Positions 4,630 to 30,975 of a DNA stretch of 64,000 bases are shown here, piece by piece (position 1 is the first letter of the stretch; each line of letters begins with the position of its first letter). Origin of the DNA: an uncultured Gemmatimonadota bacterium (GTDB taxonomy: Bacteria; SM23-81; DAOVCL01); NCBI GenBank assembly GCA_964626665.1, contig CAZVGK010000007.1, positions 1-64,000 of the forward strand. The letters are read 5' to 3'. The notes under the pieces are model-generated. The model did no database searches and was not told where the DNA came from. It saw nothing but the letters and a program-made list of their open reading frames with translations. Position numbers and translations under genes: made by a program.

Positions 4630-4711
4630 TGCAGCATCACCTTTTGGGGAGTTGTAGAGGGAGTGGTTTGACCTGATGGCTCAGGGGATTCCCCCCTTTC
4701 AGCGGGTAGGT

Positions 4712-5089: not shown

Positions 5090-5105
5090 AAAACCTCCCT
5101 AATAC

Positions 5106-5367
5106 CTGGCTTCACAAGATCTCAAGACCTGTTCCTGACAGGTTCGCGAATTTGTCGTAAATCTCTGGGCCAAAAAATTTCTGCCGCCTGGAAATGCGAA
5201 ACACCATTGAAATCCAAAATAGTCTGCAGCAAGCCTGCTTTTGGGAGAAGGGTTCTTGGCTTAGAGAATTTGTAATTTGGCCATTGGAATCTGTTTCGGG
5301 TTTCGTCATTCGGATTTAGAGTTTTCTACTTGCTTCCCGCCCCCTCGATTGCAGGCGAGGCTTCGCT
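5106..5367 (-). repeat. ~260-bp dispersed repeat, inverted homolog of 50660-51104
   Basis: Reverse complement aligns blockwise with 50660-51104 (ggcgggaag, ctaaatccgaat, aaattctctaa..aagaaccctt, ccaaaagcagg, agatcttg, tgaagccag). Confidence 0.75.
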
Positions 5368-6979: not shown

Positions 6980-6982
6980 AAC

Positions 6983-7576: not shown

Positions 7577-7605
7577 CTAAGCCTCCCTTTTAGGTTGTTT
7601 TATCA

Positions 7606-7634
7606 ACTATAGCTTAAATAAAAATTTATGTCAA
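7606..7634 (-). promoter_or_regulatory. Sigma70-type promoter
   Basis: TTGACA-17 bp-TATAGT on minus strand ~30 bp upstream of DJ-1 start. Confidence 0.7.
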
Positions 7635-7756
7635 GAAAATTTTTTAAAAAAATAGCTGACAATTTAGGGCCAGCTTTATGGGGCAGATCAGCCCAGACCC
7701 TCCTGACCCATCTGTGGGTGATCCCTGCCTACCGTTCGCTGAATGGTCCTCAACAA

Positions 7757-9505: not shown

Positions 9506-9673
9506 CCCTCCAGTGGTCGGCTAAGCTATACCTTTCATTTTTAGCTATCTCTTGTTTAAGCAAAAAACCTTCCTGCCAAAGCGGCAACAGGTGAATCTGA
9601 TAGTTTGGTTAAAAAAACGATTCAGGCAAGCTTTGCAGATTGGGATGGTACTACCCTTTAAACTTTGGTGGGG

Positions 9674-13050: not shown

Positions 13051-13871
13051 GATTTATAGATGACCGCCGAAAGGTAGCCGACAACAGCCTCTCTATCCCC
13101 CATCACATCCCCGGAAGTGGCATAATGAAGCACCTCAGCCCGGTCGGCACCAAGAAGTTGGGAGGCCAGCATAGCCGTGATTATCGGCCCCCCCCCACAG
13201 GCCTCACACCTTCCTTGGGATATATCCTCCCCTAACTTCTTAGGATCAAAGGCATTTATATCATCTATGACTACCCCATCCAGGCCGTGGGCAACCTCAT
13301 AGGGATGATAATGAGAGAGATCAGAGCTGGCCACGATGAGCGCCCTCTTCCCCTGCAGGACCTTAGCCAGAGCCTGCGAGGCTAGCTGACAAAGCCGGTA
13401 GGACTGATCGCCCATAATGATAGGGATGAGCTGGAATTTCTTGATGGTCTCCTGCAGGAAGGGGAGTTGCACCTCTAAAGCATGCTCCTGAGAGTGAGCC
13501 TCTGCCCGGTAGTTAATGAAATCATAGGAGCTGAGCAGAGCCCTCACCTCCTCCTGGGCCACCTCAATCAACCCTAAGGGGGTGCGGTAGCTATCTCCAT
13601 CCCAGATGGAGAGGCCAGGGAAATAGGTTCTATGGCTGGGGGAGAGCACGGCAACTAGATCGTAAGGGGAATCCTCAAGGAGCTTGTAACCATAGGCGGC
13701 CACCCCCCCGGAATAGATGTAGCCGGCATGGGGTGAAACTATGGCTTTAATCTCCCCATTTATCTTCTGCGGTGCCGCCTGGGAGAGGAATTCTCTTACC
13801 TGCTGGGAAAGCGAACCGGGATTCGCCGGATAGAAGCTTCCAGCAACTACAGGTTCCCTGATATTAGACAT
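13047..13871 (-). CDS. AmmeMemoRadiSam system protein B (MEMO1 family)
   Basis: REPVVAGSFYP, PHAGYIYSG, EHALEVQLPFLQ, SSDLSHY, ACGGGP, VVGYLS. Confidence 0.93.
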   Translation of the reverse strand: MSNIREPVVAGSFYPANPGSLSQQVREFLSQAAPQKINGEIKAIVSPHAGYIYSGGVAAYGYKLLEDSPYDLVAVLSPSHRTYFPGLSIWDGDSYRTPLGLIEVAQEEVRALLSSYDFINYRAEAHSQEHALEVQLPFLQETIKKFQLIPIIMGDQSYRLCQLASQALAKVLQGKRALIVASSDLSHYHPYEVAHGLDGVVIDDINAFDPKKLGEDISQGRCEACGGGPIITAMLASQLLGADRAEVLHYATSGDVMGDREAVVGYLSAVIYKS

Positions 13872-13948
13872 ATGATTCTCCCTCTCTTTTTACAACGGGT
13901 TGAAAGGAATTGAAAAGTTTTCCCTTCCATTCCTTGTAACTATTTCTT

Positions 13949-14641
13949 CTATTCCCTTTGGTTTTCCCTATTTATCCGAGGCATCCAAACATCTATAGAT
14001 TCAACTCTGATAAAATCCTCATCCCTTGTAGCTAATGTCTTTATTTCGTGTTTCTCCATCAGACAGACTGTTAAGGAATCGCTGACGAGAAGCCCAAATT
14101 GCCCTTGTATCTTTCTTGCCATAAGTAAATCTTCCAACGAGAAGGTGAAGATCTCGATCCCAATTTTTAATAACTCCTCTACATCCTCCCAATGTTTGCT
14201 TATCTTTTTAAGCTTCTCCGGATTTTGTTTTAACCTCTTAACAACTTGCTTTATTGACCATCCATACAACGAGATAGCCTCTGCTATCAACCTTCTATGA
14301 AGGACTTCATCCAAAACACGAGTTGATGTAACAGCCTTAACCCTGCCCCTTTCAACCCTTTCTAACCCACATTCCGGAAAAAATTTAAGGTCAAATACGA
14401 ACAACTACGGAAAAATCAACCAATTAGGTAGTTTTTTAATAACCGGCAATTGAAATGTAGTCCATAAAAATCTAGAAAATTTGTCTTTGAAAATCAATAA
14501 GTTACGAATCCAAAATTTGATTTTCCGGAATGTGGGTTCTAACAAAGAACTACAATCAGGAGAAATATCTTCATAGTGATACAGAAAGATGTTAGCATCG
14601 AGGTAAACAGTAGAATTGTCCGAGATTTGATCAATCCTCAT
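13949..14641 (-). pseudogene. PIN/VapC toxin interrupted by a MITE
   Basis: VYLDANIFLY 5' part; VLDEVLHR, SDSL, LATRDEDF 3' part; removing the element plus one TSD restores SSLLERVERG. Confidence 0.85.
14366..14536. mobile_element. 171-bp MITE with 16-bp TIRs and 6-bp TSD
   Basis: TIR cccacattccggaaaa/ttttccggaatgtggg; direct repeat ttctaa at 14360-14365 and 14537-14542. Confidence 0.9.
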
Positions 14642-14837
14642 AAGAAAATTCCTCGCTTTCGGCGATCTCTCGAGCTATTTCTAAGGGGAGCTTTACAGTC
14701 CCCCTCGTCCGTGCCACCACACTTGACTTACCAGAGGTTGGTTTTATCTCGATTTCTATCAATCCCTCTCGAACGCCCTTTAAGGGTTCTAACGGTCTGA
14801 TGATCTTATCCTTATACAGGGCTTTAATACCCATCAT
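14631..14837 (-). CDS. Antitoxin, AF2212/DUF104-like
   Basis: IKALYKDKIIRPLEPL N-terminus; GGAGG RBS before ATG 14837; overlaps PIN gene start. Confidence 0.75.
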   Translation of the reverse strand: MMGIKALYKDKIIRPLEPLKGVREGLIEIEIKPTSGKSSVVARTRGTVKLPLEIAREIAESEEFSYED

Positions 14838-15017
14838 TGCCTCCCGGTAGTAGATTTGGAACATTCTTGCCTTGAATGAAATCTCAAGAGCAATACCCTC
14901 CATTTTTGATTACCTCTTTAATACCATAAAAACTGTCGAATCGCAACGAATAGTTGGCCCACTCGCATTTTTTACAAAGAACTGAAGAGGGTTGAAAAGC
15001 TTTTCCTTCCATTCCTT

Positions 15018-17387
15018 TCAATTCTTTGTAACTTTTCCCTTTAGCTTTCGCCTGTTGCTCAGGGCATTTTCCAATACCTCATCCACGGTTTCCACAAAGA
15101 TAAACTTTACATCCTTCCTGATCTCCTCGGGGATCTCCTCTAAATCCTTCTCATTTTTCTTGGGCAGGATTACGGTCCTTACCCCGGAGCGATGGGCGGC
15201 CAGGGTCTTCTCCTTTAACCCCCCAATGGGCAGAACCTCCCCCCTGAGGGTTATCTCTCCGGTCATAGCCAGCCTGGGTTTAATCTTCCTTCCGGTGAGC
15301 AGGGAGGCCAGGGCCGTGGCTATGGTTATCCCTGCCGAGGGGCCATCCTTTGGTATGGCCCCAGCGGGGACATGGACATGGATGTCCAGCTTATCGTAGA
15401 AATCCTCGGCTATACCCAACCGCTGGGCCCTTGACCTTATATAGCTTAAAGCGGCCTGGGCGGACTCCTTCATCACCTCCCCCATATGGCCGGTCAAGGT
15501 GAGGGACTTGTTCCCCCTCATCTTGGTGGCCTCCACAAACATCACCTCCCCCCCCGTTCTGGTCCAGGCCAGGGCCGGGGCTACCCCTATTCTGTCCACC
15601 CTCTCCACCTCCTCAGAGAAGAACTTCACCGGCCCCAAATACTTGTGGAGATCCTTTGATTTGATTATCACCTTACCCTTTATTCCCTCTTCCACAACCT
15701 CTTTGGCTACCTTGCGGCAGATGGTGGCGATCTCGCGCTCTAAGTTCCTCAGCCCAGCCTCCTTTGTGTAGCCATTGATGGTATCACTTAAAGCCTTGTC
15801 CGTAAAGCTCAGTTGCTTAGAGGTGAGGCCATGGTTGGAGAGCTCCTTGGGAATGAGATACCTTTTGGCGATCATCACCTTCTCCCGATCCGTATACCCG
15901 GGTATCCTGATCACCTCCATGCGGTCGAGGAGGACATCGGGGATGGGATCCAGGATGTTGGCCGTGGTGATGAACATCACCTTAGAAAGATCGAAGGGAA
16001 CATCTAAGTAGTGGTCGGAGAAGCTATCGTTCTGCTCTGGGTCCAAGACCTCTAAGAGGGCGGAGGCGGGATCTCCCCGAAAGTCCTGACCTATCTTGTC
16101 CACCTCGTCCAACATAAATATGGGGTTCCGCGATCCGGCCCGCTTTATCCCCTGGATTATCCTGCCGGGGAGCGCCCCCACATAGGTGCGGCGATGACCC
16201 CTGATCTCCGCCTCATCCCTCATCCCTCCCAAGGAGATGCGCAGAAACTTCCGTCCCATAGCCCGGGCTATGGACATCCCCAGGGAGGTCTTCCCCACCC
16301 CAGGAGGCCCCACAAAACAGAGGATCGGCCCCTTCATATCCTCCTTAAGCTTCCTCACCGCCAGATACTCAAGTATTCTCTCCTTTACCTGATTTAAATC
16401 ATAATGATCCTCGTCTAAGACCTTCCTGGCCTTCTTGATGTCCAGCAGGTCCTCGGTGGACTTCTGCCAGGGAAGGGAGACCAACCAGTCCAGGTAGGTG
16501 CGGGAGACCGTGTATTCGGCAGCTGCGGGGTTCATCTTAGAGAGCCTGTCCAACTCCTTTTGGGCTGCCTCTAAGGCCTGGGGGGGCATATTGGCCTCTT
16601 TGATCTTCCGCTTCAGCTCCGCCACCTCCATAGTCACCGCATCCCCCTCACCCAATTCCTTCTGGATGGCCTTAAGCTGTTCCCTGAGGATATACTTCTT
16701 CTGGATCTCCCCCATCTCGGAGGCGGCCTCCTTCTGGATCTTTTTGGAAAGCTCCAAAACCTCCAACTCCTTATTCAAAAACAGGGTAAGCTTCTCCAAT
16801 CTGAACTTGAGGTCGGAGGCCTCCAATATCTCCTCCTTCTGGGCTATGCTCAGGTTCAGGTTGGTGGCGATCATATCGGCCAATCTTCCCGGATCCTCTA
16901 TATTCATCGCCGAGACCTGGAGGTCATCTGGCAGGTAGGGGGCAAGGGAGACCACCTTCTCGAAGAGGACGAGGATATTCCTCTTCAAAGCCTCGATCTC
17001 AATGCTCGCCTCCCTCCTCTCCTCCGTCCTCTCCACGCGGGCTATGATATAAGGCTCGCTCTTCGTCACCTTCTTTATCCTAATGCGGGCCAGTCCTTGC
17101 ACTAAGAATCTGATGCTGTTATCGGGGAATCTGAGGAGTTTGATAATCGTCCCTACAGTCCCGGAGAGGAATATTTCATCTATCCCTGGTTTCCCTACCC
17201 GAGGGTCCTTCTGGGCAAAGAGGCCAATCATCTTGTCCCCTGCCAGGACCTCATCGATCATCTTGGAATAATCCTTGTCAGTCACCACCAAGGGGGCAAT
17301 CAGATAGGGGAAGACCACTATCTGCTTGGTGGGAAGAATAGGAAGTTCCTTGGGAAGCTTGATCTCTTTTGGTTTAATCGGTTCCAT
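15018..17387 (-). CDS. lon: ATP-dependent Lon protease
   Basis: [40 protein letters not shown]. Confidence 0.97.
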
Positions 17388-17395
17388 TTCCTGTC

Positions 17396-17854
17396 CTATT
17401 CTATCTTAATGGTTAACTCCTGGGGAAGTTCCCGGGGACCCTTCCCCACCTTGATCACCAAAAAACCATCCCTGTAGGTAGCGGATATGTCGTTGGTATT
17501 CACCGATTGAGGAAGGTACACATTTCTCTCAAAGGGGCCGAAGTTGATCTCCATATTTCTGTAGTATGCTTTCCGCTGCTTCCCCTCCATTAACCTCTGC
17601 CCCTGGATGGTAAGAACCTCATCCTTGACGGTGATGTTGAAATCCTCATTCCTCATCCCAGCCACTTCCATAACAATAAGGACCTCACTATCGGTCTCAT
17701 AGACATCCATCGGAGGCCTCCAGAGCCTCTCAGAGATCAACATCGGAGGATACCTCATTTCATAGAAATGGTTGAGGAGGAGGTCCATCTCCTCCTGGAT
17801 GTGACGCGAGTCCGCCAAGAGGTTCCCCTCTCTCTTTACTTCAATCACGGCCAT
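17396..17854 (-). CDS. Hsp20/alpha-crystallin small heat shock protein
   Basis: [33 protein letters not shown]; directly upstream of lon. Confidence 0.92.
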
Positions 17855-18480: not shown

Positions 18481-21400
18481 TCACCTGATCAACACCATCT
18501 TCCTCGTCTGCACAAAATCACCCGCTTGTAATCTGTAAAAATATATGCCGCTGGAAAATGAACCCGCATCCCACCTGGCTGTCTTGTATCCTGCCTTCAA
18601 GTTCCCTTCTACCAAAGTCACTATTTTCTGGCCTAAAATGTTGTAGATCTCAAGTTTCACATAGCAATCCCTGGGTAAGGTGTATTTGATCTCAGTAATC
18701 GGGTTAAAGGGGTTGGGGTAATTAGGAAGGAGAGCGAACCTTTGAGGGGGCTGAGTTGCCGACCCCTGTTTCACCCCCACACCATATGGGATTACAAAAT
18801 CCCAATAGGGTTCGATACACCAGGTTCTCGGATTGAGGCTGTCAAAGGCAGCTACTTTCCAATAATATGTCGCTGAATCGGATAGGGATGTAGTGACTGT
18901 CCAGCTTGTATCCAATAACTCCTCTGAGGAATCAGGAGTGAGAAAAGATGAATCACTGTCTATGTAAACCCTATAGTGGATTTCATCACCATTTAAGTCA
19001 AATGAGCTTGCCCAGGTCAATGTTGGGGCCAGGGTAGAAACGCTGTCGTGGTTGACGGGATGAAGAAGATCAAAACCAGCCGGTGGGCTATTTGCTATCG
19101 TAGGGGCTATGGTAGTATCAATCTCCCCGTCGCCATCGTAGTCAACTCCTATGTCATAGTTTTCCAAGCTATCAACGTGCAGGGTGGCTATGGTATTTGG
19201 AAATACCGCAATACTATCGTAACCCAAAGTGAGAGCGGTTTCCTCTGATTCTGGCTTCAGCACCTCAGCCCTGAAATAGCAAGAATCCAGACTGAAATAA
19301 TCCACGGTGTAGTTCAAGTCCTTGGGCACATCATAAAAGGACAAAGTATCAACGGTTAAGCTATCATCCCCATAGCTCTCCAGAAAGACAACCTCGGAAC
19401 CGGGTATTTCATTCACAAAGTTTGCTCCGTCAACGAATCCCAACCGTCGTCCAAATTCATCGGTTAGCAACATCCGAACCAGATTTCCTCCTGTATAGGA
19501 ACGGGATTTCCCTCCGGGATGGAGTCTTTGCCAAACCGACGAAAACCGGGAGGAGGTTTTTGACCACAGATTCTGAGCTGTTTGTTTGACGGCTTCCTGA
19601 ATCTCTGCTCTCATTTGCTCCTCGGTCATTATCACAAAGGGCTCAAAGATATAAAGCTTGTCCTTGTCTGTATCAGCGGGCCACGTAAACGTGTCCTCAA
19701 CCAAATCGAAAGATATTGGATAAACCCATTGGCCGGGTCGCTCATTGTCGTAGACATATAGATAGGATAGAGTGTCTGTGTCTGATTCATCGCGGATTAT
19801 TTTATATCCGGTGATAGCGTGGCCTCCACCACCTCTGAGAGCAACAATGCATGGTTGATTCGCACTGATTAGGTCAAGGGCAGAGGATTGAGCCTCATTT
19901 GGATCATCACCCCAGAAGAATTTATAAAATCGGCCATGCAGAAATTGAGTTAGATGATAGTCAACAATGGCGGGTATTACTCCATCGTCACCGGGTTCCA
20001 TAGCGTATGTGTCTTTTTCGCGAACAGAGGCAGGTTTAGAATCTGGATCTACAAAGTAGGCTATGCTTGAAGCGGACATGCCAAAACAGTGGCCACCGAA
20101 ATCCTTAGTAAGCTCAGGAAAGATAGTGATGGACAACTTCCCTAACTCCAATACCTTTTTCTCAAAACAATCAGAGAAATGCGGGTTTGGGAATTGATAT
20201 CCATCGGGGTCCAACCGAAACGGATGTAAATCTGTGAGTTCGCCACCAATGCAATAGTATACCGACAATTCTTTAGAATCCTCAAAATTTACTGGTTGCC
20301 CTTCAATTTCCTCAACTCTTACTGTAACATCTTTGTCTTCCCAGCACTTGGGGATATACAAATAAGGAGTATAGTCCCCGAAGAAATGAATTGGGTTTGG
20401 TCCTCCTCCCGGTTCAATAATATCGATTTTACCGTCCTGTGGATTGATGTCCCAATGGCTTACATCAATTGGAACTACTTCGCCCCCAGCATATGCACCT
20501 ACAACTACATCATGTATAGCTCTTACACCAGTATTGGTTACTTGAAAAGGCAATTCAAGAATATCTGTTATCTTGTTATACGCGATATAGAATTGGTCAT
20601 AGAATTCTGTCTCAACCGAAAACGCCAGGAGAAGCTCAAAATTTACGGTCGTCGGCTGCCCGGCAGTCACCTCTTTGCCAGTTTGGGTATCGGTTTCATA
20701 ACTATCCTTTGAGGCTCGGACATTGTAAGTGCCAGGAGGTAGGTCAGGAATACCGTAGCTCCCATCTGATTCCGAGTTGTCGTGAGCAATTATGTTCTCT
20801 CCCTGCATCGCCTCCACAAGAACGCCCCCTAACGGTTCCTCGGTGTATGAGTCTTCTACAATGCCGGAAATTGTTCCAAGCATATCAGATGATCGTCCCA
20901 CTAGCACATTGTCAAACTTCACGGTGGCGCTTCCGTAGCCACCGGAGTAGGCTGTGACGGCAATTCGACCGTGGTCTAAAGGGGTATCTGTATCGGTGTA
21001 GTCTATAACCAGGTTGTCATCTACCCGGACTTTTATGTTACCGCCGATAACCTTGACTTTGATGTGATACCAGGTATTAAGCTGGCTGGAATATTCAGCA
21101 GTGGTGATCTCAGTGGAGACTCCATCCACTATTCTGGAGAGAGTAACCTCATCTGCACCCATCCAATCGCTTCTCACATTCACCGCATAAAAGTTGTTCT
21201 CATCAACGACCCGAACCACCACTACCTTATCTACTCCTTCTTCTCCATAGACATCGGCCTCAAAGATATAATCCGCCCAGTCAGAGTTACCGGCCACACT
21301 GAGACACCAGACCTCAGTACCGCTCACACTGGAGGTGTATTCTTCATTTTCCACGGTCCAGGTGCAACCGCCGTATTTCTGCCAGCCATCATCATTCCCA

Positions 21401-22863
21401 TCAGCGAAATCATCAAAGAACAGCGTATCCGAGGGACTGGGATTGAGCTGGAAATCAACTGTTGTGGTCTGATCGGCAATTACCTCTTTTCCATTTTCGG
21501 TTTTGGTCTCATAACCGTCTTTTGACGCTCGGACATTGTAAGTGCCTACAGGTAAATTGGGAATGCTGTAGCTCCCATCCGATTCTGTGTTATCGCTAAC
21601 GATTATGCTCTCTCCTTGCATCGCCTCTACTAATACTCCTTCAAGCGGTTGCTGGTTACTCTCATCTATCACTGTGCCTTCAATCGCACCCGCAACCAGC
21701 TCGCACACCACGGTTGTAGTCGGAGTAGGTGAGGTAACTGTGGGGTCTGGACTGGTAATGGTCGGCGACGGAGTGTTGACGGAGGGGGAAGGAGTGGTTA
21801 TAGTAGGAGAGACGCTCTGGACACCGGGAGTGACAAACTCCCCCAAGCAGGTATTTCCTGAACCATCAAACTTGGCCAGGAGGAGATCATAAACACCTGC
21901 GCCGTAACTATTAGTCCGTCCTGTGACCACAAGCCCCCCATCAGAAACCTCTGCTACAGAATACCCATAATCATAGTCGCTTCCCCCCAGGCTTCTTGTC
22001 CAGAGGTGATTCCCCGAGCCATCAAACTTGGCCAGGAGGAGATCATAAACACCTGCGCCGTAACTACTAGTCCCCCCTGTGACCACAAGCCCCCCATCCG
22101 AAGCCTCTACAACAGAGAACCCCTCATCGTATGCGGTTCCCCCCAAGGTCCTTGTCCAGAGGTGATTTCCTGAACCATCAAACTTGGCCAGCAGGAGACT
22201 CCAACCATCTTCGCCGTAACTATTAGTCTGTCCTGCGACCACAAGCCCCCCATCAGAAACCTCTACCACAGAGTTCCCCCAATCCCCGCCGGTTCCCCCC
22301 AGGGTCTTTATCCACAGATGATTGCCTGAGCCATCAAACTTGGTGAGGAGGAGATCACAATAACCTGCGCCGTAACTATAAGTGTATCCGGTAACGACAA
22401 GCCCCCCATCAGAAACCTCTGCTACAGAATACCCATAATCATAGTCGCTTCCCCCCAGGCTTCTTGTCCAGAGGTGATTCCCCGAGCCATCAAACTTGGC
22501 CAGGAGGAGATCATAAACACCTGCGCCGTAACTGTTAGTGTATCCGGTGACGACAAGCCCCCCATCGGAGACCTCTACCACAGAATACCCCCCATCCGAG
22601 GAGCCTCCCCCCAGGGTTCTTGTCCAGAGGTGATTCCCCGAGCCATCAAACTTGGCCAGGAGGAGATCATAAACACCTGCGCCGTAACTACTAGTGTATC
22701 CGTCAACCACAAGCCCCCCTTCGGAGACCTCTACCACAGAGCGCCCACAATCAGTGTTGGTTCCGCCAAGGGTTTTGACAAATTGGTTCTGGCCAAAGGC
22801 CGGTATAGCGGCAACACCTATCAAAACCACAGCCAGAAAAGGGAAAAACATGCGTGCTTTCAT
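18481..22863 (-). CDS. Large secreted surface protein: signal peptide, six 52-aa beta-propeller-type repeats, PT-rich linker, two carboxypeptidase-regulatory-like domains, lectin/DUF1080-like domain, C-terminal secretion sorting (T9SS/FlgD-like) domain
   Basis: Start moved to ATG 22863 (GGAGG RBS, MKARMFFPFLAVV); C-terminus NYPNPFNP..IKY.LP...LEIYNILGQ...SGIYFYRL...KMVLIR. Confidence 0.85.
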   Translation of the reverse strand: MKARMFFPFLAVVLIGVAAIPAFGQNQFVKTLGGTNTDCGRSVVEVSEGGLVVDGYTSSYGAGVYDLLLAKFDGSGNHLWTRTLGGGSSDGGYSVVEVSDGGLVVTGYTNSYGAGVYDLLLAKFDGSGNHLWTRSLGGSDYDYGYSVAEVSDGGLVVTGYTYSYGAGYCDLLLTKFDGSGNHLWIKTLGGTGGDWGNSVVEVSDGGLVVAGQTNSYGEDGWSLLLAKFDGSGNHLWTRTLGGTAYDEGFSVVEASDGGLVVTGGTSSYGAGVYDLLLAKFDGSGNHLWTRSLGGSDYDYGYSVAEVSDGGLVVTGRTNSYGAGVYDLLLAKFDGSGNTCLGEFVTPGVQSVSPTITTPSPSVNTPSPTITSPDPTVTSPTPTTTVVCELVAGAIEGTVIDESNQQPLEGVLVEAMQGESIIVSDNTESDGSYSIPNLPVGTYNVRASKDGYETKTENGKEVIADQTTTVDFQLNPSPSDTLFFDDFADGNDDGWQKYGGCTWTVENEEYTSSVSGTEVWCLSVAGNSDWADYIFEADVYGEEGVDKVVVVRVVDENNFYAVNVRSDWMGADEVTLSRIVDGVSTEITTAEYSSQLNTWYHIKVKVIGGNIKVRVDDNLVIDYTDTDTPLDHGRIAVTAYSGGYGSATVKFDNVLVGRSSDMLGTISGIVEDSYTEEPLGGVLVEAMQGENIIAHDNSESDGSYGIPDLPPGTYNVRASKDSYETDTQTGKEVTAGQPTTVNFELLLAFSVETEFYDQFYIAYNKITDILELPFQVTNTGVRAIHDVVVGAYAGGEVVPIDVSHWDINPQDGKIDIIEPGGGPNPIHFFGDYTPYLYIPKCWEDKDVTVRVEEIEGQPVNFEDSKELSVYYCIGGELTDLHPFRLDPDGYQFPNPHFSDCFEKKVLELGKLSITIFPELTKDFGGHCFGMSASSIAYFVDPDSKPASVREKDTYAMEPGDDGVIPAIVDYHLTQFLHGRFYKFFWGDDPNEAQSSALDLISANQPCIVALRGGGGHAITGYKIIRDESDTDTLSYLYVYDNERPGQWVYPISFDLVEDTFTWPADTDKDKLYIFEPFVIMTEEQMRAEIQEAVKQTAQNLWSKTSSRFSSVWQRLHPGGKSRSYTGGNLVRMLLTDEFGRRLGFVDGANFVNEIPGSEVVFLESYGDDSLTVDTLSFYDVPKDLNYTVDYFSLDSCYFRAEVLKPESEETALTLGYDSIAVFPNTIATLHVDSLENYDIGVDYDGDGEIDTTIAPTIANSPPAGFDLLHPVNHDSVSTLAPTLTWASSFDLNGDEIHYRVYIDSDSSFLTPDSSEELLDTSWTVTTSLSDSATYYWKVAAFDSLNPRTWCIEPYWDFVIPYGVGVKQGSATQPPQRFALLPNYPNPFNPITEIKYTLPRDCYVKLEIYNILGQKIVTLVEGNLKAGYKTARWDAGSFSSGIYFYRLQAGDFVQTRKMVLIR
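21850..22780 (-). repeat. Six tandem 156-bp coding repeats
   Basis: DLLLAKFDGSGNHLW...SYGAGVY unit; 21929-22065 identical to 22397-22533 (offset 468 = 3 units). Confidence 0.9.
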
Positions 22864-22976
22864 TCCCCCACCTCCATTTTCTAGTTTGTATTTCGTGTAG
22901 GGACAGACATTTATGTCTGTCCGCTCTTTCTTTAGGTTTGTCCGTGTCCTTTTCGGACTCCGATATACATAGGGAT

Positions 22977-23189
22977 TTATGCTTTGTGCCACTCTTCTTC
23001 CCGTATTCCCGCTTGCCGAGCTATGCGTCTTACTAAACCGGCTGATATGTCTCCCCTATGCGGGTTAGGGATATGAAGCTTAAGCTGACCCTTCTTCATA
23101 AACTGATGCTTACCGCCGGGAATGGGCCCTTCAAAACCAAGTCTACGCAATTTCCTGATCAACTCCCTCCTGGGAATAGGCTTAAACAT
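22977..23189 (-). CDS. hicA: HicA-family toxin
   Basis: RELIRKLRRLGF..GGKHQFM...IPNPH.GDISAGLV.RI. Confidence 0.88.
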   Translation of the reverse strand: MFKPIPRRELIRKLRRLGFEGPIPGGKHQFMKKGQLKLHIPNPHRGDISAGLVRRIARQAGIREEEWHKA

Positions 23190-24176: not shown

Positions 24177-24551
24177 TTATCTTTCTATTTTTACCTCACC
24201 TGATCGAAAATCTATAATAAGCATTCGATTAAGCATTAACTCTCTACCAATAATTGCTTTCTCAGACGTTGTTAATGAAATTCTAACGCTTCGCGATTTT
24301 CCTTCCCATCTTACACTTCCTACGAAGATCAGCTCCCTTTTTACGCTTCCGTCGGCAAGTTCTATGGTTTGAATCCCTGCCAGCTCTAAACCTAAAGGGA
24401 TCGCCACCTCAATAGGGAGACATAACTCACCATCAAATCCTGAGTCAACAAGTGTGAGAACGCTAGTAGTTTCTTTCCTGCCCCCAACTTTCACCTCTAT
24501 TAAAGGATTTCCGTGCTCATCGATAAATCCCTTGACCATTCGTCTCGTCAT
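24177..24551 (-). CDS. Clan AA (retropepsin-like) aspartic protease
   Basis: LVDSGFDGELCLP, LADGS, IIGRELM. Confidence 0.8.
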   Translation of the reverse strand: MTRRMVKGFIDEHGNPLIEVKVGGRKETTSVLTLVDSGFDGELCLPIEVAIPLGLELAGIQTIELADGSVKRELIFVGSVRWEGKSRSVRISLTTSEKAIIGRELMLNRMLIIDFRSGEVKIER

Positions 24552-24553
24552 TA

Positions 24554-24796
24554 TTATCGAAAGGAAACACCCGCCTTAGCGCCAATTCTTGCAAAGTAAA
24601 AAATCTTATCCGGATATCTACGCTTAGCTTTGTCTCCTGCCTCCGAATGAGTTCTACCGAGAAAATAATCACCACTTTCTATCTCTATGGCTACTATTTC
24701 CCCTATGTGTTCTGGCTTTAGCTTTTCCTCGATACTTTTGAATATGGCCTCCCCCTTCTGAGCAAATAGCTCTTTATCAACTGGCTGTATTTTCAT
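24554..24796 (-). CDS. Small hypothetical protein paired with the aspartic protease (DUF5678-like)
   Basis: GEIVAIEIESGDYFLG...A.RRYPDK.FYFARIG; GGAGG RBS; 2-bp gap to the protease. Confidence 0.7.
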   Translation of the reverse strand: MKIQPVDKELFAQKGEAIFKSIEEKLKPEHIGEIVAIEIESGDYFLGRTHSEAGDKAKRRYPDKIFYFARIGAKAGVSFR

Positions 24797-24829: not shown

Positions 24830-25380
24830 CTAAATTATTTATGCCACAAAGACACCAAGCCTCAAAGTGTTGATAGAATGAGGATTAAAAAATAATAATG
24901 GGGTCACATCTTTATTCTTGATTTTCCAATCCTCGGTCTCCTGACCTCAACATCCATCGGCATCAGGAGATGCCTCCCACAATACGCTCTTCTACCCAGC
25001 TTTAGCTGGGGTAACCGCTTTAGGGCTTTAGCCCCTTTTGGAGTGCTATGACAGGGTCACAGCCTACGTCAACAGGAGTTACCACACTTCATAGTAACTC
25101 GCACTAAAGTGCGGTAGAAATTAAAATTCGCCCCCGAGATGGCGGAAGCCCTCTTCTGTCACCCTTCCCTTTTTGCCGTCAGAATCGGGGTTCTGACGGC
25201 TCGGGCAGGGGATCTGACCGCTCAGCAGCTTAGATGTAGGGACAGACATTTATGTCTGTCCGCTTCCTTCGGACAGGTCTAAAGACCTGTCCCTACAGTT
25301 CATTATCTATGTAGGAGAGGTCTCCAGACCTTTCAAGAGCTGTCAGGAGGTAACTCCTGACAGCACATTTTTGCAAATCA
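24830..25380. repeat. Cluster of palindromic repeats
   Basis: ggcatcaggagatgcctcccaca, tctacccagctttagctgggg, gccgtcagaatcggggttctgacggc, gtagggacagacatttatgtctgtccg (also 22897), gctgtcaggaggtaactcctgacagc (25339-25364). Confidence 0.8.
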
Positions 25381-25447
25381 TTAAACTGACCGCTGCCCGC
25401 TTCAGTGTAGCGACCACCTCTATTATAATGAAATTTTTCCCTCCCTG

Positions 25448-27436
25448 TCAAGGGCATTCTTCCACCCTAAGGGGATTGAACTCCCCTATGTAATCGGCCA
25501 TCTGCTCGGTCCCCAGGACCTCCCTCAGGGCATCATCCTGGAAATTGGAGGGGAGATAACGGAAGAAGGAACCAAGGTTAAGCTGCTCCAGCAATGGGCC
25601 CCTAAACCTTTCTAAAACCCTGTCCATCTCCTCGCCCGGAAGCCAAAGGAGCTCCTCCAGGTTAGGGTTCCCCTCTAAGGTGATGAGTATGCCCCCAGAA
25701 TCCTCTGCTTTTATCCCCTTAACCAGGCTGATATACTTGGCCCAAATCCCTCCCCACATAGGCCCTAAGAAATGATAGACCTTGGTAATCCCCCCCGCAT
25801 AACAGAAGGGAAGGTCATCCTCCTTGGCCCCCACAAAAAACTTCCTCTTCAGTTTTGCCCCCAAGGAGTGGCCCCAAATCCGGCCTCCCCCCCCACAGAA
25901 CACCCCCTTTGCCCCCACCCCTTGGTAATCCAAGGGGCGGACATAAACCTTGGAGCCATCCTTTCTCTCCACCTCCCAACTCCTTCCCTTGAGGACGAAC
26001 TGGGGGCTTAAAGTCTCTATCGAGCCAATCTCCCTCCCGGACTTCAGGTCAAAGACCTGATAGCTCCCCTGGCTGCGGTCTATATTGGAATGGATAAACC
26101 CCCTCTCCGCTATAGCCTCGGCTCTGGGACCCAGCCAGTACACCCCCCCACCTGGCGACTGCACGAATTCGACCTTCTCCAAATGAATGAGAAGTTCCAT
26201 AACATCGGTAAGCTCTAAACCCAAGGGGGAGAGAGCCCTTTGGATGGCTTCTGGGGTGGCCCCTATCCTTCTCTTCTGATAAAGATAAGAGAGTATCTGC
26301 TGCACCGCCACCGAGAGATAGAGGGGAGGATCCTCCTCCTCCAGCCACCCTAATTGGGCAAGTTCAAAGAGAAGCTTAAAGAAGGTTAACTCCCAATTAT
26401 CCTTATAGAGACCGTAAGCTACCAATTCTCCCCTTCTCCTGTTGCCTCGTCCCAACCTCTGTAGCAAAGCACTCAGCGAAGGGGGCGGGGAGATGAGAAC
26501 CACCGCCTCAATGTCACCTATGTCCACCCCCAACTCCAGGGTCATCGTGGCCACACAGATCCCCACCCTCTCCCGATTCATCCCCCTCTCCACCCTTTCC
26601 CTCTCCACCCTGCTCAGGCTGGCATGATGCACCCATATCCTCTCCGGGTATTTCCAGAGCCTCTTTAGGAGCAAGGCTACCTCCTCCACCTTCTTCCTGG
26701 TGTTGCAGAAGACCAGGGCCTTCTTGATCCCCTTCCCCTCAAGCTCCCTGATCAACCCCTGCAGGTTATCGTCAAAGGGAAGCAGGGTATGTTTAATCAC
26801 CCTCTTCCCCTTGGCCTGAACCACCTCAAAGGGGAAGAAATACCTCTCCCCTAAGGATATGGGATCAGCTATCGTTGCCGAAATAGCATAAAAGCGGAGG
26901 GGTTCCCCCCGCAGAAGCCGCAGCCTCTGCAGGAGCACCCGCAACTGATCGCCCCGATAGGTTCCATCTAAGAGGTGGATCTCATCCAGGCAGACGGCCT
27001 GCAGAGACTCCAATGCCTGGGGCGCCCGACAGAGGAGGGAGTCGAAGGACTCCGGGGTGGTAACGAGAGCAGGGGTGGGTTTCTGGGGGCGAAAATCTGG
27101 GTGATCCATCGTCTTCCTAGACAGGCCAATCCTCAACCGCTCCAAAGGGCCTTTTAACCTCTTGTAGAGGTCGTTAACCAAAGCCCTGGTGGGGGAGACA
27201 TAGAGGATGCTCAGCCCCCCCCAATCCTCCTTGAGGAGAAGCTCGGCCAAGGGGGCCATCACGGCCTCCGTCTTCCCGGTGGCCGCAGGCGAGGAGACGA
27301 CCAGGTTTCTCCCTTGTAACACCCGGGGTATGGTCAGCCTCTGAATGGGGAGAAGATGGGGGAATGGGGAGAAGAAAGCCCCCCAAGAATGGCTCAGAAG
27401 CTCCCTGACCTCCCGCTCAGACCCCTTGAGGTTCAT
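25448..27436 (-). CDS. Lhr-like SF2 DEAD/DEAH-box helicase
   Basis: SPAATGKT, PTRALVND, TTPES, DEIH, SAT, HHASLS, ATMTLELGVDIGDI, QRLGRGNRR. Confidence 0.9.
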   Translation of the reverse strand: MNLKGSEREVRELLSHSWGAFFSPFPHLLPIQRLTIPRVLQGRNLVVSSPAATGKTEAVMAPLAELLLKEDWGGLSILYVSPTRALVNDLYKRLKGPLERLRIGLSRKTMDHPDFRPQKPTPALVTTPESFDSLLCRAPQALESLQAVCLDEIHLLDGTYRGDQLRVLLQRLRLLRGEPLRFYAISATIADPISLGERYFFPFEVVQAKGKRVIKHTLLPFDDNLQGLIRELEGKGIKKALVFCNTRKKVEEVALLLKRLWKYPERIWVHHASLSRVERERVERGMNRERVGICVATMTLELGVDIGDIEAVVLISPPPSLSALLQRLGRGNRRRGELVAYGLYKDNWELTFFKLLFELAQLGWLEEEDPPLYLSVAVQQILSYLYQKRRIGATPEAIQRALSPLGLELTDVMELLIHLEKVEFVQSPGGGVYWLGPRAEAIAERGFIHSNIDRSQGSYQVFDLKSGREIGSIETLSPQFVLKGRSWEVERKDGSKVYVRPLDYQGVGAKGVFCGGGGRIWGHSLGAKLKRKFFVGAKEDDLPFCYAGGITKVYHFLGPMWGGIWAKYISLVKGIKAEDSGGILITLEGNPNLEELLWLPGEEMDRVLERFRGPLLEQLNLGSFFRYLPSNFQDDALREVLGTEQMADYIGEFNPLRVEECP

Positions 27437-28766
27437 AGCGGTAATGGCGGTAATGATCCAGCAATTCCACCGCCTCCCTGAGGAACATCCTCACCCCCCT
27501 CTCCTTCAAATCCTTGGTCAACAGGGCTCTCACCCCTTGGTCCGCCCGAAATGAGGGGAAGGCCTGGCCGTAAAGTTCAATGACCTTCTCTAACATCAGG
27601 GAGTACTCGGAGGTGGAGAGGGGGGAAAGGGTAATGGTTTTCCCCTGAGGGACAAGCTCCTCTATCCCCTGGTAGTAAGGGGAAGAGGAGGGGGTATAGC
27701 CGAGGACCAAAAATATATGGGAGGGACGCTGATAAAGGTAGGGGAAGGGACGCATACCGGAGTGAATGTACCCCTCCTCATCAACCCAACCTACATTTAG
27801 GCCTGGGTCCCTCTCCCCATCCCCCTTCTTTATCGCGGTCAACCGAGGAAGGTTGAGGGCGGTGCCCACCAGGCCCTTAAAGAGATAAAGGCCAATCCTC
27901 TGATAGGGGGTCCACCAGAGGTGAAAGAGGGTCTCAGCCTCATCGATGACCAGCACCAACCCCTTTCCTCCTAATCCCTTAATCAGGTATCCTAAGCCGC
28001 TAAGCAGGTAACAGTAGATGTCCACTGCCGGGGTGTGATCTAAGAGGACCGGCAATTTCCAATATCTAAGGTAGTTTAAGTAATCCCTCCCCATCTCTTC
28101 CCCCCCGATCCAATTCCAGAGGGCAGGAAGGTCCTCATCCTGGGAGAGGAGCCAGAGGGCCTTGGAGAGGAAGAAATGGGGGGAGGGAAGGTCCATCCCC
28201 TTGGCTCTCCTCAATATTTCCGGGAAGCCTATCTCCTCATTCCCCTGGATAAACCTCAGGGTCCTGGTCAATTCCCGGTAGATGTGCTTGGGGCGATATG
28301 GGGTGACATCAAACCTATCGAGTTGCGCCCGGCCCACAGCGTATCCCTGCCGCAGGGCCCAGCCAAGGATATAGTCCAAGAGGTGGGTCTTCCCTGACCC
28401 ATACTCTCCCTCTATGGCCAGAACCTCACCGCCCTTGTGGGAGAAACCCTCAAAGGCCTGCTCCACCTCCCGCAGCTCCTTATCTCGGCCAAAGGTGAAG
28501 TCACTGATGGCCAAGGAGGGAACCACTCCTAATCTGAAGGCCTCGATCATCCTTCGTGATCGGAAATCCCCCCCCTTGGTGGGGATATGCCGGGGCTGAG
28601 CAGGTGGTTTCTTCCTCTCGACCGGGGTAAGCAGCTTTAAGGTCTCCCGGTTCATCCAAAGGGTGAGGCCATTGGCAAACTCCACCAAGAGATGCATCCC
28701 TCGCCATCTGGTATCCACAACCTTCCCCTCACCTAAGCCTTGATGATAGACCTTACTCCCAATCAT
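27417..28766 (-). CDS. BrxD/DUF2791-like P-loop ATPase with N-terminal Tudor-like beta domain
   Basis: IEAFRLGVVP...TFGR, Walker A GEYGSGKTH, Walker B LVLVIDEAE. Confidence 0.78.
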   Translation of the reverse strand: MIGSKVYHQGLGEGKVVDTRWRGMHLLVEFANGLTLWMNRETLKLLTPVERKKPPAQPRHIPTKGGDFRSRRMIEAFRLGVVPSLAISDFTFGRDKELREVEQAFEGFSHKGGEVLAIEGEYGSGKTHLLDYILGWALRQGYAVGRAQLDRFDVTPYRPKHIYRELTRTLRFIQGNEEIGFPEILRRAKGMDLPSPHFFLSKALWLLSQDEDLPALWNWIGGEEMGRDYLNYLRYWKLPVLLDHTPAVDIYCYLLSGLGYLIKGLGGKGLVLVIDEAETLFHLWWTPYQRIGLYLFKGLVGTALNLPRLTAIKKGDGERDPGLNVGWVDEEGYIHSGMRPFPYLYQRPSHIFLVLGYTPSSSPYYQGIEELVPQGKTITLSPLSTSEYSLMLEKVIELYGQAFPSFRADQGVRALLTKDLKERGVRMFLREAVELLDHYRHYRYEPQGV

Positions 28767-30044
28767 TTAATACTCCTTATGATTCGCCTCTTCCTGAAGC
28801 TCCATCTCCAAGGTCATCAATTGATCCCGAATAATCCTTCTGGCCATCTCCCTTCCTATGGGCTCAGCGGGATTGTTTCTCAGGAGGTGAAAGGCCTGAA
28901 TTATCCCCTTCACAAAGACCCGCCTATGGCCCACATCAGCATACCTCTCCTCATAGGCCACCTGGGCCAGGTGGGAGATGGTCTCCCTAAGGTTATCCCG
29001 GTGGAAGCTAAAGGGGGGATAGGCAGCCTGGTAGATAGCGGAGAGCTTCTCCCCCACTTCCCTGAGGAACTCCACCGGCTCCATCCCCAACTCCTCCAGG
29101 TTTATCCTCACCCCACTGGGATTAAGCCCAGTGAGAACCCCGGAAAGCCTCTGACGCAGGGCTTCATAGACCTCCAATCTCTCCTCCAAGAGCTGCCTTT
29201 CATCGGGAATGGCATAGAAGATCATCACCCCGGGGAGCCTGCTGTTTCCACATTCATCTATCAGTTGCCTGAGGTTATCCATAGCTGCCCTCCTCTCCCG
29301 GGAGGAGGCAATGCTTAAACCTCTCTCCGCCTCATCAAAGAGGAGGACCAGGCCTGCATAGCCAATGGCCTTGATCCACTGGGCCAAGGATCTGAGCTGG
29401 CGGAAGGCGGTGGGCTTGTCCACCCTTTCGGTGATCCCATACTCATTGCGGATGGGGCGATCGATCTCTTCCCCCTTCAACCACTGGAGTATCCGTTCAT
29501 AGTCCTGACCTCCCCTCTGCAGGGAGAGAAAGGCCTCCTTGACCGCATTGGCAAAGCTGGAGGACTCTATCCCTGCCAGGGAGCGGACATAGGAGGTGAG
29601 GTACTCCTCCCCTTTCTCCCCAAACTCCTCCACCTTCTCCATATACCAGTTGCGGAGGAAACCATCGATCCCCCTCTCCCAGGGCTTTATCTCTCCCTCC
29701 CCCCTCATCGGATACATCAGGTTGGCCATCGTAGCCTTATAGACAAGCTCCAGCTTGTTGAAGGGGCATTCCACCGGGGAGAGGGCCACATAACTTACCG
29801 CATAACCTCGCGACCAGCCTATATCCCTCATCCGGTAGAGGAAGTGGGTCTTCCCCCCTCCGTAATTGCCAACTACTAACTTGAAGGCCGAACCTCCTAA
29901 CTTGATAAAACTCTCTAAATACTCCTCATCTATTATCCCCAACCAGGGGTCCAACCCCACGGTAAAGGACTCTACCCCAAACTCTGGGGGGGTCCCGGTC
30001 CCCCCCAACCTGTTTATTATAGCCTTGGCCAACCCTGGTTTCAT
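28767..30044 (-). CDS. BrxD/DUF2791-like P-loop ATPase
   Basis: IINRLG.GTPP..GVE.FTVG, FKLVVGNYGGGKTHF, GYAGLVLLFDEAE, NLRQLID, YEALRQRL. Confidence 0.82.
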   Translation of the reverse strand: MKPGLAKAIINRLGGTGTPPEFGVESFTVGLDPWLGIIDEEYLESFIKLGGSAFKLVVGNYGGGKTHFLYRMRDIGWSRGYAVSYVALSPVECPFNKLELVYKATMANLMYPMRGEGEIKPWERGIDGFLRNWYMEKVEEFGEKGEEYLTSYVRSLAGIESSSFANAVKEAFLSLQRGGQDYERILQWLKGEEIDRPIRNEYGITERVDKPTAFRQLRSLAQWIKAIGYAGLVLLFDEAERGLSIASSRERRAAMDNLRQLIDECGNSRLPGVMIFYAIPDERQLLEERLEVYEALRQRLSGVLTGLNPSGVRINLEELGMEPVEFLREVGEKLSAIYQAAYPPFSFHRDNLRETISHLAQVAYEERYADVGHRRVFVKGIIQAFHLLRNNPAEPIGREMARRIIRDQLMTLEMELQEEANHKEY

Positions 30045-30048
30045 TGGC

Positions 30049-30855
30049 TTACCCCCTTATGGAGAGATAGGCATATCTCGTCCCCTTCTCCTCATCATCA
30101 GGGACAAAGATTACTTTGTCTCTCCTCTTTGTTGCCTCGAAAGTAGCCACCCAGAGGGATAACTCCTCCCCCCTTATCCTCCTTAAGCGGTAGAGATCGT
30201 AGCCAAATTGTGCCCTTCCGTAACCAATATAATTCGACTTGATGGGATTTGCCTTAAACCTATCCCCTTGCCTGAGAAAGGCAAGCTCTCCCAAAACCCC
30301 AACAATCAGTGCCCTCTCCCCTTCCCCTCCCCTTAAGGCCCGGTGGTAGGCCTCCTTGAGCAGGGAGAGATAAGAATCGGGCTCAAATGGGCTTCCCTTA
30401 AGCTCCTCCTCAAACCTGAGGATGGAATCTACCACCTCCTGGGGGTTAAGCCTTATCTTCTTCACCGGTTCCGGCCCCCAGGAGATGGCCACCTCCCCCT
30501 GCAGGAAGTTGGGCTTCAGGGAGTAGAGGCCAGCATAGAGGTTAGGATACTGCCCACGCAGCTTAAACCCCTTAGCCTGCAACTCCCCCTCTAACTTCCG
30601 GCCAAAGTCGGATTTAAACTCCTCCTTCCACCGCTTTAACCTCAGCCTCTGATCATCCAGCCAGCGGCTCAAATTGGGGATAAGCTGGCCAGGTTCCAAC
30701 CCAGCCTTGAGCTTCTCCATCTTCAAAAGGAGGGCCTCCATAACAAAGGGATTGGAAGAGGGCTCCCCCTCCATTCTCCCATATCCAGCCAGAAGATTGG
30801 CCAACTCCTTGGCCCTCCTCTGAAACCTCAAAAGCCTATCCCTTAACTCCTTCAT
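30049..30855 (-). CDS. Hypothetical protein (helical/coiled-coil N-terminus), first gene of the ATPase-helicase operon
   Basis: ATG 30855 after AGGGGGA RBS; 4-bp gap to the ATPase; no family recognised. Confidence 0.75.
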   Translation of the reverse strand: MKELRDRLLRFQRRAKELANLLAGYGRMEGEPSSNPFVMEALLLKMEKLKAGLEPGQLIPNLSRWLDDQRLRLKRWKEEFKSDFGRKLEGELQAKGFKLRGQYPNLYAGLYSLKPNFLQGEVAISWGPEPVKKIRLNPQEVVDSILRFEEELKGSPFEPDSYLSLLKEAYHRALRGGEGERALIVGVLGELAFLRQGDRFKANPIKSNYIGYGRAQFGYDLYRLRRIRGEELSLWVATFEATKRRDKVIFVPDDEEKGTRYAYLSIRG

Positions 30856-30947
30856 ATTCCCCCTTCTATGGCCTTCAGTCAACCTTTACTTGCTGTTGGG
30901 GTTGAAGCCAGAATCATCGAAGTGGGTTGGCAACTCCCCTCGCTATA

Positions 30948-30975
30948 ATTATAACCTTTACCTTCCCGAAATCAA
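30948..30975 (-). promoter_or_regulatory. Putative sigma70 promoter of the four-gene operon
   Basis: TTGATT-16 bp-TATAAT on minus strand. Confidence 0.5.

Follow-up and report, generated by a model that had tools for sequence, protein, structure and literature searches.

The first 64,000 nucleotides of contig CAZVGK010000007.1, from an uncultured Gemmatimonadota bacterium and referred to here as the window, carry a four-gene cassette encoding a small protein of no annotated family (ORF1, the first open reading frame, or ORF, of the array), two divergent ATPases of the BrxD type (ATP1 and ATP2) and a superfamily 2 (SF2) helicase resembling Lhr. After type 2 bacteriophage exclusion (BREX-2) and Shango, it represents a third way of building on the pairing of a BrxD-type ATPase with an Lhr-like helicase, and is set apart by its new front protein and by having the ATPase in duplicate. 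The pair is common to both of these systems, and is here combined with a third, unrelated front protein. The reading preferred below, which is judged to have about an even chance of being correct, is that the cassette encodes an adaptor and a heteromeric AAA+ loader for the Lhr-like helicase, kept vertically on the chromosome in this lineage as a genome-surveillance or maintenance system rather than as a mobile anti-phage island.

A sequence-only reading of the window had described the four genes as a closely coupled array; they lie on the minus strand, and both the ORFs and their spacings were found as it had quoted them, with 4 bp between ORF1 and ATP1, 0 bp between the two ATPases and a 20 bp overlap between ATP2 and the helicase. 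The motifs it had listed are likewise all present, as GNYGGGKT and LVLLFDEAE in ATP1, GEYGSGKT and LVLVIDEAE in ATP2, and CLDEIH in the helicase. The start of ORF1 is placed at an ATG at 30855, which is preceded by a ribosome-binding-like GGGGGA; an alternative upstream TTG start would lengthen the protein to 277 amino acids (aa; 30049-30882). The coordinates of the cassette and its candidate control sites are collected in Table 1.

Both ATPases fall within PF10923 (BrxC_BrxD), which ATP1 matches over its full length (E = 2.7e-47, positions 6-404 of 414) and ATP2 over its N-terminal third only (E = 6.7e-24, residues 69-185). The best PADLOC match of each is BrxD (5.4e-36 for ATP1 and 5.7e-22 for ATP2), with SngB also matched (4e-22 and 6.5e-12, respectively), and each falls far under the cut-off of 350 bits set by the NCBIfam model for BREX_BrxD, NF033438, at 126.1 bits for ATP1 and 75.7 bits for ATP2. 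The duplication of a BrxD-like ATPase, as claimed from the sequence, is real in the sense of two divergent PF10923 paralogues, which share 23% identity (BLASTP E = 9e-11) and of which ATP1 is by far the slower-evolving. The Walker A and B motifs of ATP2 are intact, with G120, K126, T127, D275 and E276 invariant in an alignment of its orthologues. A quick tree of 30 ATPases resolved six separate, well-supported clades, consisting of chromosomal ATP1, chromosomal ATP2, plasmid ATP1, plasmid ATP2, SngB and BrxD; this tree settles neither the deep branch order nor whether plasmid ATP1 and ATP2 are orthologous to their chromosomal counterparts.

The helicase, in which Pfam recognises DEAD and Helicase_C domains, has BrxHI as its best PADLOC match (3.2e-73) and also matches SngC (2e-69, residues 25-501). 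Lhr helicases are described as DNA-repair enzymes in the available text of two sources (PMC7437997, PMC9841417). Against the NCBIfam Lhr-type models, with cut-offs of ~850 bits, the protein scores 165-169 bits. Among solved structures, the best sequence matches are Lhr chains from mycobacteria (5v9x_A and 7lhl_A, E ~1e-24), aligned over residues 21-195 only; we take mycobacterial Lhr to be an RNA:DNA helicase. Helicases from Methanoperedens archaea (G007:C3:155023-156573, corresponding to L019 13445-14902, and those of loci L016, L018 and L020) align only to residues ~1-501/533 of the 662-aa query, and the G007 match contains one in-frame TGA, such that the C-terminal domain of these proteins may be different, split or broken.

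The front protein, ORF1, has no match in Pfam, NCBIfam 20.0 or PADLOC-DB 2.0. A word-indexed search recovered 16 relatives, and a family profile made from 14 of these and run against 1.84 billion cluster representatives matched 913 at a threshold of E ≤ 1e-3, of which 263 reached E ≤ 1e-30. Fifty-three diverse members of the family have no Pfam family in common and no TerB-type match, even at E ≤ 1, while alignment of the ORF1 profile to two plasmid SngA proteins with hhalign gave probabilities of 0.5-0.6%. Homology of ORF1 to TerB or Brx proteins, an outcome for which the sequence-only reading had allowed, is rejected on the strength of these negative alignments together with the absence of Pfam, NCBIfam and PADLOC matches. 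Fused or longer forms were not returned by a single-sequence query, which is weak evidence, and three longer members of the family carry Rho_N/SAP N-termini. The most conserved motifs of the family are the invariant GQYPxLY (residues 101-107), GP (127-128) and GTR (258-260).

Structure prediction with AlphaFold (AF2) returned a model of ORF1 with a predicted local distance difference test score (pLDDT) of 90.8 over its full length; residues 93-268 modelled alone reached 91.1. Three parts can be told apart, beginning with a bundle of three helices (residues 1-94), continuing with a beta unit of five strands and a helix, and ending in a C-terminal region of ~110 residues. Searched as a whole, the model found nothing in the PDB at E ≤ 1e-3 with Foldseek and, among the VIA-align matches listed, only generic helical bundles aligned to residues 1-83. 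Residues ~155-268 (63-176 of the fragment model), when compared using VIA-align, matched structures that are mostly winged-helix proteins by entry title among the 50 matches listed, the best being the winged helices of ORC1/Cdc6 proteins (8s0e_G, Z 7.4, root-mean-square deviation 3.0, 77 residues aligned; 1fnn_B, Z 6.3). As these Z values lie below the VIA-align caution line of 8, the C-terminus of ORF1 is graded as a probable winged-helix domain.

A novel adaptor had been among the proposals of the sequence-only reading, and this idea gains support from co-folding of ORF1 with ATP1, which passed its controls with ipSAE scores of 0.61, 0.61 and 0.62 against 0.00 for the best control. At least 76% of contacts agreed between runs, and partner pLDDT was at least 81. 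The mark used is reached by 116 of 157 solved complexes and by 2 of 215 mismatched pairs, rates that are only approximate with user-supplied alignments such as those employed here. On the ORF1 side the predicted interface takes in residues 74-89, 100-107, 127-128, 236-237 and 257-260, thereby covering the GQYPxLY, GP and GTR motifs, and on the ATP1 side residues 60-61 (beside the P-loop), 280-301, 365-372 and 406-413. Binding of ORF1 to ATP1 is thus a supported prediction of the models.

In the clade of the window, archaeal copies included, ATP2 begins with a conserved domain of ~55 residues that a Pro/Lys-rich linker joins to the rest of the protein; within the domain, H8, G12, G14, R20, F30 and W37 do not vary. 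A profile of this region built from 14 orthologues placed the C-terminal Tudor chains of UvrD first among PDB entries (7egs_B, E = 8.4e-4; 6yi2_A, 1.3e-3; 7egt_B, 0.027), with KDM4A tudor domains ranking after them. Among single orthologues, two of eight gave sub-threshold Pfam matches to PcrA_UvrD_tudor (PF21196; 13-14 bits, with a cut-off of 23.9) and two of eight to CarD_TRCF_RID. According to the available text of PMC8318588, the Tudor domain of PcrA/UvrD is a binding module for RNA polymerase and for a motif that UvrB also contains, and the contact between the PcrA domain and RNA polymerase is tied to R-loop suppression; H681, W684, K712 and L714 of PcrA are reported to be required for RNA polymerase binding (PMC5397179, available text). 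When aligned with UvrD, the histidine of an HxxhGxG motif is invariant in ATP2 and the residue three positions further on is hydrophobic, and through this alignment the histidine would correspond to PcrA H681. The window's genome also encodes an ordinary UvrD with a Tudor domain, as well as Mfd and CarD. The ATP2 of one plasmid cassette described below (L026) lacks the domain, as its alignment begins only at column 70.

Recurrence of the gene order in other genomes had been set beforehand as a test of the sequence-only reading, and was examined at 20 loci with an ORF1 relative, obtained by scanning one genome per species. By record titles these belong to Zixibacteria, WOR-3, Latescibacteria, relatives of Gemmatimonadota, unclassified bacteria and Methanoperedens archaea. 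The order ORF1-ATP1-ATP2 is found at 17 of the 20, spanning five bacterial candidate phyla and the Methanoperedens archaea: ATP1 follows ORF1 at 18 loci (in L007 after a 1.75-kb insert), and ATP2 comes next at 17, the contig of L017 stopping inside ATP1. The helicase is then next at ten loci, including L003, where a 4.6-kb efflux insert intervenes; it is not adjacent at four where the contig continues for 4 kb or more (L004, L006, L012 and L013), and a further four contigs stop too early to judge. ORF1 stands alone at two loci (L008 and L015). Since the order recurs in other genomes, the grouping of the four genes goes beyond chance.

Co-occurrence extends widely at the level of the genome. 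In an even sample of 151 WOR-3 metagenome bins, each at least 85% complete, ORF1 was present in 54 genomes (36%), as a single hit region in 53 of these, with that of G161 being split over two contigs. Strong matches to PF10923 (E ≤ 1e-18) were found in all 54 carriers, and in G176 (contig edge), while a helicase orthologue (E ≤ 1e-40) was found in 50 of the 54 and in G176, though not in G067, G101, G122 or G208. By coordinates, all four genes are contiguous in ~27 of the 54 carriers. Elsewhere the components are retained yet unlinked: ORF1 and the ATPases are on different contigs, with enough flanking sequence to rule out a break in the assembly, in G075, G101, G126 and G135 at least, and the helicase is separated by 13-17 kb or placed on a different contig in G131, G204, G008, G066 and others. 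Likewise, in the WOR-3 genome behind L006 an orthologue of the helicase (46% identity, E = 6.6e-172) is encoded on a separate contig. ORF1 occurs in all five genomes of one WOR-3 order. Retention of this kind, without linkage, fits a resident cellular function.

The neighbourhoods of the cassette were surveyed with Pfam for 82 of 115 flanking ORFs (some others being scanned separately) and with PADLOC for 119 ORFs, including two from the L007 insert and three from the window. Most neighbours are housekeeping genes, and genes of DNA metabolism recur in several independent settings. For instance, topoisomerase VI B and A genes lie directly upstream on the same strand in L017, L018 and L020, with RadA nearby in the last two, while MutL is encoded beside the cassette in L019, GyrA/GyrB in L010, FtsK in L004 and L006, and a UvrA-like protein in L003. 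PADLOC matches among the 119 neighbours were mostly generic ATPase or helicase matches to housekeeping proteins, and clear defence-type neighbours were few, comprising a SoFic-like gene in L007 and, close to the lone ORF1 of L008, genes of the Csx1/CARF-HEPN kind. With so few defence matches and so many housekeeping and DNA-metabolism neighbours, the accessory-island setting implied by the sequence-only reading was not upheld for the window's lineage. Of its description of the flanks as repeat- and TA-rich accessory DNA, the base composition stood, in that they are AT-richer (GC 0.46 at 24-26 kb), but no island is evident: the divergently oriented upstream neighbours, encoding a Big_1/invasin protein and an outer membrane protein (OMP) barrel, are the same in the relative L001 from within the genus, which marks this as a stable chromosomal site. 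Hsp20 recurs downstream in another congener (L002). No ORF1 relatives were found in viral contigs.

On these grounds, namely retention without linkage, a single copy in 36% of the phylum sample, housekeeping and DNA-metabolism neighbours and a Tudor-like domain of the repair type, genome maintenance is somewhat favoured over phage defence as the role of the cassette. In the mechanism proposed, ORF1 would be a non-enzymatic adaptor that docks on ATP1 and offers a winged-helix surface for DNA binding. ATP1 and ATP2 together could form an ATP-driven, heteromeric ORC/Cdc6-like loader or switch, by which the Lhr-like 3'-5' helicase would be loaded or activated on DNA. The Tudor-like domain of ATP2 may recruit this machine to stalled transcription or repair complexes through a partner such as RNA polymerase or UvrB, a role suggested by the way in which the UvrD/PcrA Tudor domain docks a helicase on both.

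A substantial, though lesser, likelihood is given to defence against phages or plasmids, in which the cassette would be a four-gene sister of Shango, with ORF1 replacing SngA and the ATPase duplicated, that senses foreign or damaged DNA and uses its helicase to block phage replication. The PADLOC matches to BrxD/SngB and BrxHI/SngC favour this alternative, as does the fact that, wherever relatives of the ATPase-helicase pair have been characterised by experiment, they belong to defence systems: BREX-2 and Shango, the latter being an experimentally shown defence system with the same kind of pair (PMC10250203, available text). Further support comes from plasmids, among which a tblastn search with ATP1 returned 27 records, six of them inspected in context. 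Two harbour canonical Shango, consisting of a TerB_N protein, an ATPase and a helicase (L025 and L028), and one BREX-2, consisting of PglZ, BrxD and a helicase (L029). Two others, however, carry the same kind of four-gene cassette as the window, made up of genes for a hypothetical protein of 279 aa, a pair of ATPases and a helicase. That of the conjugative Aulosira laxa plasmid3 (L024, 1-10554) comes directly after genes for a PglZ-type protein, a BrxD-like ATPase and a helicase, such that two BrxD/helicase modules stand in tandem, while that of a 27-kb Desulfomonile plasmid (L026) adjoins AbiEii/AbiEi. As both 279-aa proteins are distantly homologous to ORF1 (by hhalign, 97.8% probability with E = 8e-13, and 97.4% with E = 1.4e-11), the cassette evidently also travels in defence-like company.

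Other observations that weigh against genome maintenance concern distribution and the Tudor-like domain. Outside WOR-3 the occurrence of ORF1 is patchy, a point that likewise favours defence in the case of the archaea and the phylum of G011: it is found in 6 of 53 Methanoperedenaceae genomes, in 12 of 141 in the phylum of G011 (one closely related), and in three of seven in the window's own small phylum, all three within the window's genus, with none in the four genomes of a sister family. The carrier genomes are moreover mutually related metagenome bins, so that the counts are not independent, and describe a pattern rather than amount to a statistical test. The congener G001 holds a second, divergent, full cassette (L030, G001:C59, 2-4411; identities of 33% for ORF1, 47% for ATP1, 29% for ATP2 and 50% for the helicase), a copy that the window's genome lacks, and in L007 the sequence at 3871-5599, between ORF1 and ATP1, is occupied by genes for a Fic protein resembling SoFic (PADLOC, 1.2e-35) and for a class I methyltransferase; the second cassette and the SoFic-like insert both count in favour of defence. 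The assignment of the Tudor-like domain is borderline, given the E value of its best match and Pfam scores below threshold; the lysine equivalent to UvrD K708 and PcrA K712, needed for RNA polymerase binding, is not conserved in ATP2; and the domain is also kept in archaeal ATP2, where the RNA polymerase differs.

Defence is nonetheless ranked second, for several reasons. None of the 20 loci has a defence-island context, and around half of the WOR-3 carriers retain components that are unlinked, which would be unusual for defence cassettes that are traded horizontally. The single hit region per genome in all but one of the 54 carriers and the lack of viral-contig matches point the same way, and no nuclease or other effector domain was recognised by Pfam. 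Finally, the Tudor-like domain is of a type found in repair helicases, and is absent from the one plasmid version tested.

An improbable third explanation is that the cassette acts on RNA or RNA:DNA hybrids, for example by removing R-loops or by policing RNA quality at the transcription complex, the helicase working as an RNA:DNA helicase and taking no part in immunity or in the repair of DNA lesions. It draws on the kinship of the helicase with Lhr, presumed above to act on RNA:DNA in mycobacteria, on the link between the PcrA Tudor domain and R-loop suppression, and on the nucleic-acid-binding Rho_N/SAP N-termini of the longer ORF1-family proteins. The adjacent genes, however, point to DNA topology and repair rather than to RNA metabolism, and this explanation is in effect a special case of genome maintenance, from which nothing separates it.

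A more specific version of the genome-maintenance reading, which on present evidence is doubtful, would have the cassette as a hitherto unrecognised housekeeping pathway and not as immunity. Here the two ATPases would form an AAA+ heterodimer of the ORC/Cdc6 kind that obtains its winged helix from ORF1, is held on RNA polymerase or UvrB by the Tudor-like domain, and loads the Lhr-type helicase where transcription or replication complexes have stalled; Shango and the BrxD-BrxHI pair of BREX-2 would be immune offshoots of this machine or donors to it. If the cassette does encode a genome-maintenance machine, this would point to the state of DNA or of transcription as the cue by which Shango and BREX-2 detect infection, and the boundary between repair and immunity would be blurred. 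The ORF1 family is large, and conserved across whole bacterial lineages even where the genes are scattered. Its predicted interface with ATP1, formed by invariant motifs, its probable winged helix and the Tudor-like domain of ATP2 all provide experimental handles.

Table 1. Position of the cassette genes, the N-terminal domain of ATP2 and candidate control sites in the window
Feature	Position	Strand	Basis or remark
Candidate sigma-70-like promoter upstream of ORF1	30948..30975	-	TTGATT-16-TATAAT, 10/12 in a consensus scan; consensus match alone
ORF1, 268 aa, founder of an unannotated family, predicted ATP1-binding adaptor	30049..30855	-	No Pfam, NCBIfam or PADLOC match
ATP1, 425 aa, full-length BrxD/SngB-type ATPase (PF10923, ORC/Cdc6-like AAA+)	28767..30044	-	
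ATP2, 449 aa, divergent ATP1 paralogue with extra N-terminal domain and Pro/Lys-rich linker	27417..28766	-	
ATP2 N-terminal domain, residues 1-55, UvrD/PcrA-type Tudor-like	28602..28766	-	14-orthologue profile
SF2 DEIH helicase, 662 aa, BrxHI/SngC-type (Lhr-like)	25448..27436	-	PADLOC
GC-rich palindromic hairpin, possible terminator or REP-type (repetitive extragenic palindromic) element	25339..25364	.	Terminator-like scan, 11-pair stem

The hairpin lies 84 bp past the stop codon of the helicase. Overlapping this stop codon is a perfect sigma-70-like site (TTGACA-18-TATAAT, 25422-25451), ahead of two small ORFs of 80 and 124 aa just downstream of the helicase (24177-24796, minus strand). Neither has a match in PADLOC, and the longer has a sub-threshold match to the clan AA aspartic protease model TIGR03698 (E = 1.7e-12, 47.6 bits, with a cut-off of 57.35). 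The wider flanks encode Lon, Hsp20, the Big_1/invasin protein, lipid A genes and a secreted protein of 1503 aa (18481-22992, minus strand), which combines CarboxypepD_reg domains and a 3-keto-disaccharide hydrolase domain with a type 9 secretion sorting tail.

Individual features were also recorded at related loci. In L003, a 1797-aa UvrA-like protein with UvrA_inter and UvrA_DNA-bind domains and several ABC modules is encoded divergently from ORF1 (4449-9845), and the insert between ATP2 and the helicase is an efflux operon of the MacAB-TolC type (13460-17832). The second cassette of G001 is cut by the start of its contig and sits beside a MoxR AAA_3/DUF58/BatA-VWA operon. The remaining plasmid context, from Deinococcus psychrotolerans (L027, 2978-10392), presents a further variant of the front end, with hypothetical proteins of 851 and 451 aa followed by one BrxD-type ATPase and a helicase; the 451-aa protein is coiled-coil-looking and not an ATPase, and a second ATPase-helicase pair lies ~3 kb further on.

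The cassette was not found described, as a set of four genes, in PADLOC 2.0, Pfam, NCBIfam or the literature searched, which included few subscription papers and no supplements. It matches no described system completely, in keeping with the claim of the sequence-only reading that it was undescribed: the ATPases and helicase match BrxD/SngB and BrxHI/SngC, and ORF1 matches nothing. The same reading had found no BREX core and no TerB gene, and this holds across the genome of the window, which is 3.17 Mb in size and 99.65% complete. PglZ, PglX, BrxC/PglY and PglW are absent from the window's flanks; genome-wide, where the search covered PF10923 and PglZ but not PglX or PglW, the only PF10923 genes are ATP1 and ATP2. 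TerB was not found in the genome, with TerB_C being uninformative, as the controls of that search gave no signal. The sole PglZ domain belongs to a 517-aa fusion with a response-regulator receiver (Response_reg), encoded on another contig (G000:C22:18777-19355; L023 1204-2757, minus strand), which we presume to resemble PorX of type 9 secretion systems. With no further PF10923 gene and the only PglZ domain in such a fusion, a BREX system hidden elsewhere in the genome is rejected.

Of the known systems, Shango is similar in that its SngB and SngC proteins are matched by the ATPases and the helicase of the cassette, in encoding the helicase last, and in the order of front protein, ATPase and helicase seen in the plasmid Shango loci. 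By contrast, its front protein SngA is a TerB-domain protein of 755-1267 aa, whereas ORF1, at little more than a third of the lower figure, is unrelated to it by all the tests applied and lacks any TerB, TerB_N or TerB_C match. Shango also has one SngB, where the cassette has two old paralogues that both match BrxD better than SngB, and the Tudor-like domain of ATP2 and the chromosomal housekeeping context are further differences. The resemblance to BREX-2 (Pgl) lies in BrxD and BrxHI being the best PADLOC matches of the ATPases and the helicase, respectively, but there is no BREX-type PglZ or BrxC in the genome, and neither ATPase reaches the BrxD equivalog cut-off. Set beside the Tudor domain of UvrD/PcrA, to which the RNA polymerase-interaction domains of Mfd and CarD may be added, the ATP2 domain is similar in matching UvrD Tudor chains and in keeping the HxxhGxG histidine, but it is N-terminal and fused to an AAA+ ATPase instead of an SF1 helicase, and the lysine is not conserved. 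We know of no BrxD-family protein for which loading activity has been shown. In the available text of PMC12839542, where BrxD-BrxHI is treated only within BREX-2, the two are described as a tightly linked dyad, BrxD being proposed as a helicase loader and classed among the AAA+ ATPases of the ORC/Cdc6 type, though lacking a domain for DNA binding. The similarity of the ORF1 C-terminus to the winged helices of ORC1/Cdc6 suggests that the winged helix absent from BrxD may here come from a separate protein. This likeness to ORC/Cdc6 initiators and loaders has its limits, the helicase being of the SF2 Lhr-like type, rather than a ring-shaped MCM or DnaB, and the fold match being modest (Z 6.3-7.4).

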